Shown here: positions 26,465-47,941 of the stretch, piece by piece
Numbering within the stretch: the stretch's first letter is position 1
How the letters are laid out: each line of letters opens with the position of its first letter
Assembly: GCA_942492375.1 (NCBI GenBank)
Contig: CALOEL010000018.1
Coordinates: 22,706-86,705, forward strand
Reading direction: 5' to 3'
DNA length: 64,000 bases
Origin: an uncultured Alphaproteobacteria bacterium
GTDB taxonomy: Bacteria > Pseudomonadota > Alphaproteobacteria > Rhodobacterales > Rhodobacteraceae
Made by a program: the position numbers and the translations under genes
The notes under the pieces: model-generated
The model's database searches: none
What the model was told of the DNA's origin: nothing
Seen by the model: only the letters and a program-made list of their open reading frames with translations

Positions 26465-26492
26465 AAAAAAGAGGCCGGGCAAAAGCCCGGCC
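26465..26492 (-). terminator. Intrinsic terminator (minus strand) downstream of the LysR gene
   Basis: On the minus strand: GGCCGGGC-TTTT-GCCCGGCC followed by TCTTTTTTG. 8-bp GC stem and a T6 tract. Confidence 0.7.
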
Positions 26493-26635
26493 AAGTCCAA
26501 CAGGGAGGTAAAAGCCGCTGAGAGTTGCCTCAACCATCGGCTTCACGTTGCATTTAGGGATGCCCGACGGACCCTTCAAGCAAAATTGGCCTTCTCCGAT
26601 GCATTGCTGCTATGCAGCCGCTGCATGGCAGAAGG

Positions 26636-34409: not shown

Positions 34410-34496
34410 GACGCGCGTTCCGCGCGTCGCTGATTTCAGGGCGCGTCCTGCGGACGCGACGATGCCTCCGGCGGGGATATTTGCCAGACAATGAAG
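34410..34496 (+). repeat. Structured intergenic repeat, copy A
   Basis: Hairpin GACGCGC-gttcc-GCGCGTC, hairpin GCGTCC-tgc-GGACGC, then the box GATGCCTCCGGCGGGGATATTTGCCAGACAATGAAG. The box matches copy B at 34 of 36 positions. Confidence 0.8.
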
Positions 34497-34555
34497 GACA
34501 GGCGGCCTGCGCGCGGTGGCTTGCGGGCGGGTTAACCAATTCGACGCAGCCTTGG

Positions 34556-39454: not shown

Positions 39455-39544
39455 GACGCGCCTTCGGCGCGTCACGACATGGGAGTTGCGCCGTGCAAGG
39501 CACGGCGCGCCGCCTCCGGCGGGAGTATTTCATCGAAGAAAAAA
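39455..39544 (+). repeat. Structured intergenic repeat, copy C (diverged)
   Basis: Hairpin GACGCGC-cttcg-GCGCGTC (same stem as copy A), hairpin GCGCCGTGC-aag-GCACGGCGC, then CGCCTCCGGCGGGAGTATTTCATCGAAGAAAAAA. Confidence 0.65.
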
Positions 39545-39583
39545 CCCGGATCGCCAGCCAGAATCGCCGGCGCCCGGCGACAC

Positions 39584-47818: not shown

Positions 47819-47877
47819 GCCGCTTGGATAGCCCGAGTTGCGGGCGAAGGGAAGCGCCCTGGAAAGATGGCATCTGG

Positions 47878-47941
47878 CTTCATTGTCTTGAAAATATCCC
47901 CGCCGGAGGCATCGCGTCGCGGGCCCGGCCCGCGGCGCGAT
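47878..47941 (-). repeat. Structured intergenic repeat, copy B (between trpD and trpC)
   Basis: On the minus strand: ATCGCGCCGCGGGCC-GGGCCCGCGACGCGAT hairpin, then GATGCCTCCGGCGGGGATATTTTCAAGACAATGAAG. The box matches copy A at 34 of 36 positions. Confidence 0.8.

Follow-up and report, generated by a model that had tools for sequence, protein, structure and literature searches.

A modular extragenic repeat at gene ends across the Rhodobacteraceae

Three copies of a repeat in a 64-kb window

The window, by which is meant the whole 64-kb stretch of DNA that was analysed, carries three copies of a short intergenic repeat. Identified by Pfam, the flanking genes encode CcmE followed by a GH108 muramidase at the first site, an enoyl-CoA hydratase convergent with citrate synthase at the second, and TrpD followed by TrpC at the third. 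The first-pass annotation had named ccmE, the enoyl-CoA hydratase gene, trpD and trpC, placed each copy on the 3' side of a gene whose orientation it shares, and described one or two GC-rich hairpins in front of each box; all three copies are present in the sequence as described. They are referred to below as copy A (ccmE), the diverged copy (enoyl-CoA hydratase gene) and the minus-strand copy (trpD), and are made up of the following parts.

34410-34428, plus strand: hairpin 1 of copy A, GACGCGCGTTCCGCGCGTC, 9 nt past the ccmE stop codon and followed by the moderately U-rich GCUGAUUUCAG
34440-34460, plus strand: hairpin 2 of copy A, GGCGCGTCCTGCGGACGCGAC, abutting the core module with GAT between
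34464-34482, plus strand: core of copy A, GCCTCCGGCGGGGATATTT, a GC-rich module in which a 4-bp hairpin is possible, then the invariant GGATATTT
34483-34496, plus strand: variable 3-nt spacer of copy A, GCC, and purine-rich tail AGACAATGAAG (tail at 34486-34496)
39455-39473, plus strand: hairpin 1 of the diverged copy, GACGCGCCTTCGGCGCGTC, 9 nt past the stop codon of the enoyl-CoA hydratase gene
39488-39508, plus strand: hairpin 2 of the diverged copy, GCGCCGTGCAAGGCACGGCGC, of the 'TTGCGCC...' hairpin-module type
39512-39530, plus strand: core of the diverged copy, GCCTCCGGCGGGAGTATTT, the GGGAGTATTT variant
39531-39544, plus strand: spacer and tail of the diverged copy, CGAAGAAAAAA (tail at 39534-39544)
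47878-47891, minus strand: tail AGACAATGAAG (47878-47888) and spacer (47889-47891) of the minus-strand copy
47892-47910, minus strand: core of the minus-strand copy, GCCTCCGGCGGGGATATTT, between trpD and trpC and in their orientation
47914-47939, minus strand: hairpin module of the minus-strand copy, GCGCCGCGGGCC..GGCCCGCGACGC, abutting the core

The 36-nt box described in the first-pass annotation is identical at 34 of its 36 positions between copy A and the minus-strand copy; the figure stands for this pair, but the labels B and C in the text of the annotation were swapped against its coordinate list. The GACGCGC...GCGCGTC stem is, as had been noticed, common to copy A and the diverged copy. 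Hairpin 1 of copy A is probably the terminator hairpin of ccmE. It is kept in four sister species, one of which shows a compensatory change from A-T to G-C. Hairpin 2 has a homologue (CGCGTCC..GGACGC) in three of the four sister species, while a different hairpin stands there in the fourth. Similarity between copies stops sharply at the end of the copy A tail, at 34496. Between ccmE and the lysis genes, hairpin 1 and the U-rich stretch behind it already resemble a terminator for ccmE.

The GGGAGTATTT core variant of the diverged copy recurs with the same tail class at G000:C2:398897, with near-variants at C12:275580 and C14:509019. The complement of the diverged copy's tail forms the U-run behind a minus-strand hairpin at 39562-39545, and the two together resemble a terminator of the convergent gene, that for citrate synthase. 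As a general role for the tail, a U-tract serving the convergent gene was rejected: it holds for citrate synthase, and among 66 copies it does not rise above a shifted control.

A search of the window for the core GCCTCCGGCGGGGATATTT with at most three mismatches returned exactly three sites, where 0.02 would be expected. In the host genome 71 sites matched with at most two mismatches, against none for a reversed control. A chance origin of the three window copies is thus excluded.

Extent and build of the family

The host genome (3.6 Mb, 63% G+C, 20 contigs, 99.98% complete) holds 51 exact copies of the core, and the 71 copies found with at most two mismatches divide between the strands as 36 and 35. 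Of 201 genera that were sampled in the same GTDB family, 126 carry the core when one mismatch is allowed, with 0-92 copies per genome, and one such match was found among about 298 genomes from about 200 other alphaproteobacterial families. On this sampling the repeat family appears to be restricted to the Rhodobacteraceae in the GTDB sense. Its carriers include Roseobacter, Sulfitobacter, Roseovarius, Yoonia, Shimia, Thioclava, Phaeovulum, Rhodobacter, Cypionkella, Paracoccus, Ruegeria, Phaeobacter and Cereibacter. In Ruegeria sp. TM1040 a copy lies between dgcN and dgcA, and Cereibacter sphaeroides has at least one. The first-pass annotation had taken the copies for a REP/MITE-like element; that they belong to a dispersed intergenic family of this sort, and are no local coincidence, is borne out by about 70 copies in the genome and a core shared by so many genera of the family; the genome-wide count goes far beyond the three copies in the window.

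Phage records contained no match to the core, and the matches on plasmids were intergenic solo copies. A phage- or GTA-borne element was rejected in the light of the missing phage matches and of a density of one copy per 50-70 kb, which we judge far too sparse for a signal that would serve the uptake or packaging of 4-kb GTA fragments. Searched against Rfam at gathering score, the whole window gave no match at the copies, SorX and tRNA elsewhere in the window being the only ones; around copy A, a search at E <= 10 returned sub-threshold matches only, far below gathering score. Literature searches by sequence string and by topic retrieved no description of the repeat, and the supplement of a Paracoccus sRNA paper held no copy. 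The family appears to be undescribed in print.

The unit is about 34 nt long, non-palindromic and modular. It consists of an interchangeable GC-rich module, the invariant GGATATTT, a variable spacer of 3-4 nt and a purine-rich 11-mer tail. Pairwise comparison of all genome copies places a sharp right similarity boundary at +12 to +19 past the core in most copies, commonly at +14 to +16, and the left boundary at the core start or a few nucleotides before it. The spacer varies freely even between copies that have identical core and tail. Tails fall into a few classes in the host genome: AGACAATGAAG in 35 of 66 copies, GACAAATGATG in 13, TCAAGAAGAAG in 10, AACAGAAGAAA in three, CGAAGAAAAAA in two and others in the remaining three. 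They are more alike within a genome (likeness 0.76 and 0.66) than between genomes (0.54 and 0.53).

Upstream modules were surveyed at every GGATATTT in 1.83 Mb of Rhodobacteraceae DNA (n = 243). The 11 nt on the 5' side proved interchangeable. The commonest module is GCCTCCGGCGG (132 of 243), rarer ones are GCCTTCGGCGA (14 times), GCTCCGCGCGG (four) and GCCTGCGGCGC (three), and many C-rich modules (..CTCCCCCG, GGACCCCCGTG and others) also precede GGATATTT and a purine-rich tail of the same type. The universal module is therefore GGATATTT with spacer and tail. Read on the opposite strand, the repeat has an AT-rich head followed by interchangeable GC-rich segments. An anti-Shine-Dalgarno mimic (CCUCC) was discarded, the motif being lost in the core variants GCTCCGCGCGG and GCCTTCGGCGA.

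In this genus the core usually has a strong hairpin fused to its upstream side. In the host genome one of at most -8 kcal/mol stops no more than 6 nt short of the core in 50 of the 66 copies; across genera, under a stricter threshold of -12 kcal/mol within 45 nt upstream, one is found in 61 of 131. These upstream hairpin modules form families too, of a GATCTTTCTGCGAAAGATC type and a TTTGCGCCGCGGGC..GCCCGCGTCGC type. Hairpin, core and tail recur together in the host genome as composite units of 55-70 nt with 87-93% identity, and those of the minus-strand copy are found elsewhere in the genome as a 61-70-nt composite, again with 87-93% identity. About 12 of the 66 copies lie in some six inverted doublets, which occur both tail-outward (81-100 bp) and tail-inward; the other copies, about 54, are single and have no inverted partner.

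Within the core itself, a 4-bp stem that includes a U.G (T.G) pair and ends directly before AUAUUU can form in the GC-rich module. Its energy is -2.3 to -4.1 kcal/mol for the core variants on the forward strand and -1.6 kcal/mol on the complementary strand. In an alignment of 70 sequences 96.8% of cells pair, and changes on both sides occur in 17 cells as against 3.2 in shuffles. The pair between positions 5 and 11 is C-G in 52 of these sequences, U-A in 14 and G-C in three; a scan of the genome collection with both positions left free gave C-G 132 times, T-A 14 times and G-C three times. The two sole non-complementary combinations at these positions stand in contexts without the element tail, one of them in a Bacillota MAG. 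Orthologous copies at ccmE that carry GCTCCGCGCGGGG or GCTTCGCGCGAGG shift the register and keep four pairs, including the wobble.

The covariation signal comes essentially from one pair and amounts to perhaps two or three independent events. The T-A and the G-C form may each go back to a single event that was later amplified. As to the structural covariation that the first-pass annotation had proposed to look for, the small core hairpin does show some compensatory change, but the events are few, and an alternative tetraloop register accounts for most variants by one-sided changes. Overall, there is moderate evidence that the small hairpin would fold in a strand-specific manner.

Placement, persistence and strand orientation

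Placement was scored on gene calls from a crude GC3-based caller that covers 82% of the host genome. The spacers that hold copies there are co-directional in 31 cases (23 copies sense and eight antisense), convergent in 18 and divergent in two, and the upstream stop codon lies 7-67 nt from the copy. A cross-genus sample of 120 loci, again with crude gene calls, comprised 48 co-directional (20 sense and 28 antisense), 35 convergent and six divergent spacers; a further 20 loci fell 'inside' called genes, probably through gene-calling error. From both surveys it follows that gene-end placement and the avoidance of divergent spacers are general, and that sense orientation is not. Hence the gene-end location reported from the window is seen in the host genome and across genera alike, and the accompanying statement that copies always take the gene's orientation does not generalise. 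A promoter was considered as well and rejected, there being no conserved -35 box at the right spacing and the repeat being rare in divergent and common in convergent spacers.

The three sites of the window differ in their history within the genus. At ccmE the two hairpins and the element occupy the same place and orientation in all five species examined, and core variants, spacers and tail classes differ between these species. The core variant has been swapped beside conserved orthologous hairpins, which suggests that copying or conversion renewed it; a set of four coordinated point changes seems less likely. At the enoyl-CoA hydratase site three of five species examined have the element; the other two have a spacer of about 400 bp, in which another gene seems to lie and no copy is found. 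The trpD-trpC spacer carries a sense copy in the host genome, none in one species, a degenerate reverse copy in another, a reverse copy only in two more, and a decayed forward plus a reverse copy in a further two. Long-lived sites thus occur in the family side by side with copies that are replaced, inverted or decaying. The first-pass annotation had also conceived of a device that possibly separates ccmE from the lysis cassette. Between trpD and trpC the repeat is no fixed device, the orthologous copy being reversed, degenerate or absent in sister species. The copy at ccmE is kept in site and orientation in five of five species, which makes a local punctuation role plausible there.

Orientation is linked to strand composition. 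When 8-kb loci from other genera are oriented by the element, the forward strand is richer in G than in C in 71 of 94 of them (p about 7e-7), and coding content in the same loci is balanced between the strands at 409 versus 419 kb. The host genome shows a corresponding pattern in the coding-strand GC skew of adjacent genes, which is +0.063 for sense and -0.021 for antisense genes around a genome mean of +0.020 (p about 1e-6). The association is strongest in the 200 bp beside the element and fades over about four genes; AT skew is absent around the host-genome copies. Across genera the flanks at -30..-1 contain G at 0.38 and C at 0.27.

At the scale of the replichore the picture is uneven. Orientation switches with the replichore, as defined by GC3 skew, in 20-21 of 25 copies of the complete genome G129. 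It agrees with the replichore in only 43 of 72 copies in G513, and the host genome shows no orientation bias at contig scale (18 of 38), both figures being hand counts. In the host genome the replichore-level skew is itself very weak, with an autocorrelation of 0.07 at lag 50. Replichore-wide orientation was accordingly dropped as a general rule, being strong in G129, weak in G513 and absent at the contig scale of the host. The link with skew may stem from replication, from transcription-associated asymmetry or from a G-rich sequence travelling with the element.

Interpretation and relation to known repeat classes

In the broad sense the repeat is a REP/BIME-like element, being short and non-coding, with about 70 dispersed extragenic copies and mosaic motifs. 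A REP in the strict sense it is not: the core has no GTAG-type tetranucleotide, and its conserved hairpin has a stem of just 4 bp, while the larger hairpins in front of it can be exchanged for one another. A search of the host genome for a Y1/RAYT transposase (PF01797, E <= 0.001) gave no match, and the control genomes were positive; because the host genome encodes no such enzyme, the family is not a REP of the RAYT type, and a RAYT-driven REP was rejected. The flanking target duplications that the first-pass annotation had proposed to look for are not found: among 66 copies no plausible boundary showed a consistent excess of 2-6-nt direct repeats, and the most enriched boundary combinations rest on one or two copies. 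The intervals between longer '- then +' pairs held no transposase-like ORF; to judge by N-terminal sequence alone, the genes in them are of an ordinary housekeeping kind. A MITE with target duplications or a parent insertion sequence was set aside as well, neither having turned up at the copies or in the '- then +' intervals read. The earlier REP/MITE-like label therefore survives for a mosaic repeat in the broad sense, but not for a classical MITE or a RAYT-type REP. Compared by eye, IHF sites, DnaA boxes, sigma-54 sites and rolling-circle nick sites yielded no look-alike that fits the consensus. The evidence that the repeat may be mobile is indirect.

With respect to transcription, the strong hairpin has no U-tract behind it, and a consensus terminator scan called none of the three window copies on its own strand. 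The anatomy of an intrinsic terminator is not found, because the stem that adjoins AUAUUU is only 4 bp long and weak (about -2.3 to -4.1 kcal/mol) and the strong hairpin lacks a U-tract. A putative role for the repeat as a terminator or insulator, as first suggested, is plausible, but it is not general in the orientation that was claimed.

It is probable, if some way short of certain, that the three boxes belong to a mosaic extragenic repeat family of the REP/BIME/ERIC-like kind, to which RIME can also be counted. The family would be kept up by copy-and-paste or by a conversion-like renewal. The renewal step would read one strand, either single-stranded DNA or RNA, and recognise on it the small imperfect T.G hairpin together with the AT-rich box beside it. 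Effects on neighbouring genes would then be a by-product: a sense copy would equip a transcript's 3' end, or the spacer between two cistrons, with stable hairpins and an exposed AUAUUU, and this combination has the anatomy of a 3'-exonuclease barrier beside a cleavage site of the RNase E type, or else that of a weak terminator. RNase E of Rhodobacter favours AU-rich single-stranded stretches of this sort (PMC6238624). After cleavage, the upstream RNA would keep a hairpin-protected 3' end. Such a by-product role is likely for the copy kept behind ccmE, ahead of the GTA-type lysis genes. Several features weigh against the mosaic-repeat reading. A free spacer beside a shared core and tail looks more like long-standing purifying selection on two boxes, and the invariance of 19 nt over more than 100 genera, far beyond that of REP families, hints at a conserved trans-acting partner. 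The weakness of the small hairpin and the thin covariation also count against it.

The opposite emphasis, in which the effect on RNA is the reason for the family's existence, treats hairpin(s) and AUAUUU as a dedicated RNA cis element, a selected terminator or an RNase E processing or 3'-stabilising site that would punctuate operons such as ccmE/lysis and trpD/trpC and would be useful at many gene ends. The close spacing behind upstream stop codons (7-67 nt), the strong hairpin abutting the core in 50 of 66 copies and the sense bias of 23:8 between co-directional genes of the host genome all agree with it, and so does the U.G wobble, which is kept in all core variants and marks one strand as the folding strand. 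The preference of RNase E is for a consensus of the R-N-W-U-U type, which AUAUU fits. AUAUU also suits the RNase E of Rhodobacter, which prefers AU-rich single-stranded sites (PMC6238624). The ccmE copy, conserved in place and orientation in five of five species, is what such an element would lead one to expect; the trpD-trpC copy, antisense in several sister species and missing in one, is not. Nor is there a sense bias across genera (20 sense versus 28 antisense, on crude gene calls), a U-tract past the strong hairpin or a terminator call for any copy on its own strand, and the mini-hairpin is weak. We regard a dedicated RNA element as unlikely, though not so unlikely as to be neglected.

Constraint might instead be exerted at the level of DNA, if the repeat were a double- or single-stranded site for a conserved Rhodobacteraceae protein (nucleoid-associated, topological, or linked to replication or repair) and hence a host signal in place of a selfish repeat. 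The two boxes around the free spacer would be contact points, and the genome-typical tail would co-evolve with the protein. A 19-nt core that is invariant over more than 100 genera beside a freely varying spacer, and tails that are more alike within than between genomes, accord with this. So do an orientation that is not tied to transcription across genera and, in 71 of 94 loci, a forward strand that is locally the G-richer one (p about 7e-7), together with the coding-strand GC skew of adjacent genes (sense +0.063, antisense -0.021; p about 1e-6) and the replichore switch in 20-21 of 25 G129 copies. However, the skew association is gone within about four genes, and the replichore link is weak in G513 (43 of 72) and absent at host contig scale (18 of 38). 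At least five tail classes and several core modules in one genome are awkward for a single binding protein, and copy numbers of 0-92 among genera mean that a third of these do without the repeat, which is not expected of a core host signal. A protein-binding DNA site is in our view doubtful.

The inverted doublets bring a classical MITE back into consideration, with the 34-nt core and tail as the terminal inverted repeat of an insertion sequence, doublets of about 100 bp as the mobile form and solo copies as broken halves. Doublets that point tail-outward, span 81-100 bp and have a central hairpin between near-perfect inverted ends of 34 nt do exist at C10:118954-119053, C5:123826-123923 and C5:131786-131866, and the same arrangement recurs in other genera. 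Yet doublets account for only about 12 of 66 copies and occur both head-to-head and tail-to-tail, no target-site duplication appears at any tested boundary, the longer '- then +' pairs enclose no transposase-like ORF as far as N-terminal sequences tell, and phage records have no match. This origin strikes us as very improbable.

More broadly, the repeat could be a strand-specific host signal, kept family-wide by a putative conserved protein or RNA partner, and not a selfish repeat at all; we give this a minor but appreciable chance. The partner would read the small T.G hairpin, GGATATTT and the co-evolving tail on one strand, and the signal would sit where genes end, on whichever strand is locally rich in G. 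If true, this would be a new RAYT-independent system that ties gene-end punctuation to replication- or transcription-dependent strand asymmetry.

The Rhodobacteraceae include the ocean roseobacters and the model phototrophs Rhodobacter and Cereibacter. Terminators are poorly defined in these organisms, and the repeat is an obvious candidate there for an RNA signal of general use at 3' ends or between cistrons. A genome may hold as many as about 90 copies, which label the ends of genes and could serve strain typing; they also confuse searches for sRNAs, terminators and regulatory motifs, and can break assemblies. For an extragenic repeat it is unusual in three ways: 19 nt are invariant in more than 100 genera, a RAYT is absent, and orientation is coupled to the composition of the local strand.

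Set beside known systems, intrinsic terminators share with the repeat the GC-rich hairpin(s), a short U-containing stretch and a location just past stop codons and in convergent spacers. Here, however, AUAUUU is short and lies 13-17 nt from the strong hairpin, the adjacent stem has 4 bp, and many copies are antisense to the neighbouring gene; moreover, the repeat conserves sequence, whereas terminators conserve shape only. With the REP/BIME elements of Enterobacteriaceae and Pseudomonas the repeat shares short extragenic units of about 35 nt with an imperfect strand-marking hairpin, numbering in the tens to hundreds; in both, copies lie at the ends of genes and between those that are co-transcribed, singly or as inverted pairs, and form mosaics with other short motifs. 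Sense REP copies in E. coli can stabilise mRNA 3' ends or attenuate. Unlike REP/BIME elements that are served by a RAYT (TnpA_REP), the repeat resides in a host genome without such an enzyme and has no GTAG-type tetranucleotide. Its conserved part is mostly an AT-rich box and a purine-rich tail beside the hairpin, and more than 100 genera share one and the same core, REP sequences being for the most part confined to a species or genus.

In this last respect the repeat resembles the ERIC/IRU elements of Enterobacteriaceae and Vibrio, which combine a family-wide consensus over many genera with very uneven copy number, an intergenic transcribed location and no known mobilising enzyme, and of which some orthologous sites persist and others vary by presence or absence. 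The resemblance is one of behaviour alone: ERIC is an imperfect palindrome of 127 bp, unlike the non-palindromic unit of about 34 nt in the Rhodobacteraceae, and the sequences are unrelated. RIME1, RIME2 and the Sm-repeats of the Rhizobiaceae are likewise alphaproteobacterial, intergenic and mosaic, with GC-rich palindromes and conserved boxes. They belong to another host family and have other sequences, RIMEs being more than 100 bp long and built from two large palindromes; weak partial BLAST matches of the repeat to Sinorhizobium plasmids (E = 4) are at chance level. Overall, this is a real, large and family-wide repeat of a known general kind.

Strand asymmetry and chromosomal distribution

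Across genera, the forward strand of the repeat lies on the locally G-rich strand at 71 of 94 loci (from the sample L001-L120). Over the whole genome, within 2 kb on either side of each copy, the GC skew of adjoining genes is +0.063 in the sense and -0.021 in the antisense orientation, an effect that fades over about four genes; the same analysis detected no AT skew around the copies. In the complete genome CP180347.1, 38 of 72 copies, by hand count, fall within the first 1.07 Mb, i.e. one third of the chromosome, and the density of the repeat is therefore strongly uneven along it.

Terminator-like sites and inverted pairs

Two terminator-like sites adjoin copies of the repeat on the other strand:
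39545-39562 with 39531-39544, minus strand, a hairpin followed by UUUUUUCUUC, assigned to the convergent gene for citrate synthase
34498-34510, minus strand, weaker site of similar kind adjoining copy A (the copy behind ccmE)

The UUUUUUCUUC run is the complement of the tail of the diverged copy. Judging from the 66 copies in the genome against a shifted control, such a pairing of hairpin and tail complement is no general trait of the family. Three doublets in the genome containing the window have their tails facing each other:
contig C3, 158971-159054
contig C12, 122412-122585
contig C2, 398897-398986

Their partners differ in core variant, GCCTCCGGCGGGG facing GCCTTCGGCGAGG or GCCTGCGGCGCGAG, so that the long palindrome is always imperfect.

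Conserved elements at ccmE and trpC

On the 3' side of ccmE (34410-34460) both hairpins are kept across species of the genus (L153-L156) with compensatory changes, GACGCGC..GCGCGTC versus GGCGCGC..GCGCGCC, independently of the core variant downstream. A further motif is conserved in the genus (L122-L127, the sister trpD-trpC loci):
~47830-47870, minus strand, CTTCCCTTCGCCC..N..CAGGCTATCCAA upstream of trpC

Located about 25 nt ahead of the ATG, it persists regardless of the state of the repeat in the same spacer. This motif probably represents the promoter or leader of trpC.

Relationship of the organism

One small RNA is matched in Rfam:
26467-26526, minus strand, SorX (singlet oxygen resistance sRNA X), 51.7 bits

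The match exceeds the gathering score of 46.6 and places the organism near Rhodobacter/Cereibacter-type bacteria.
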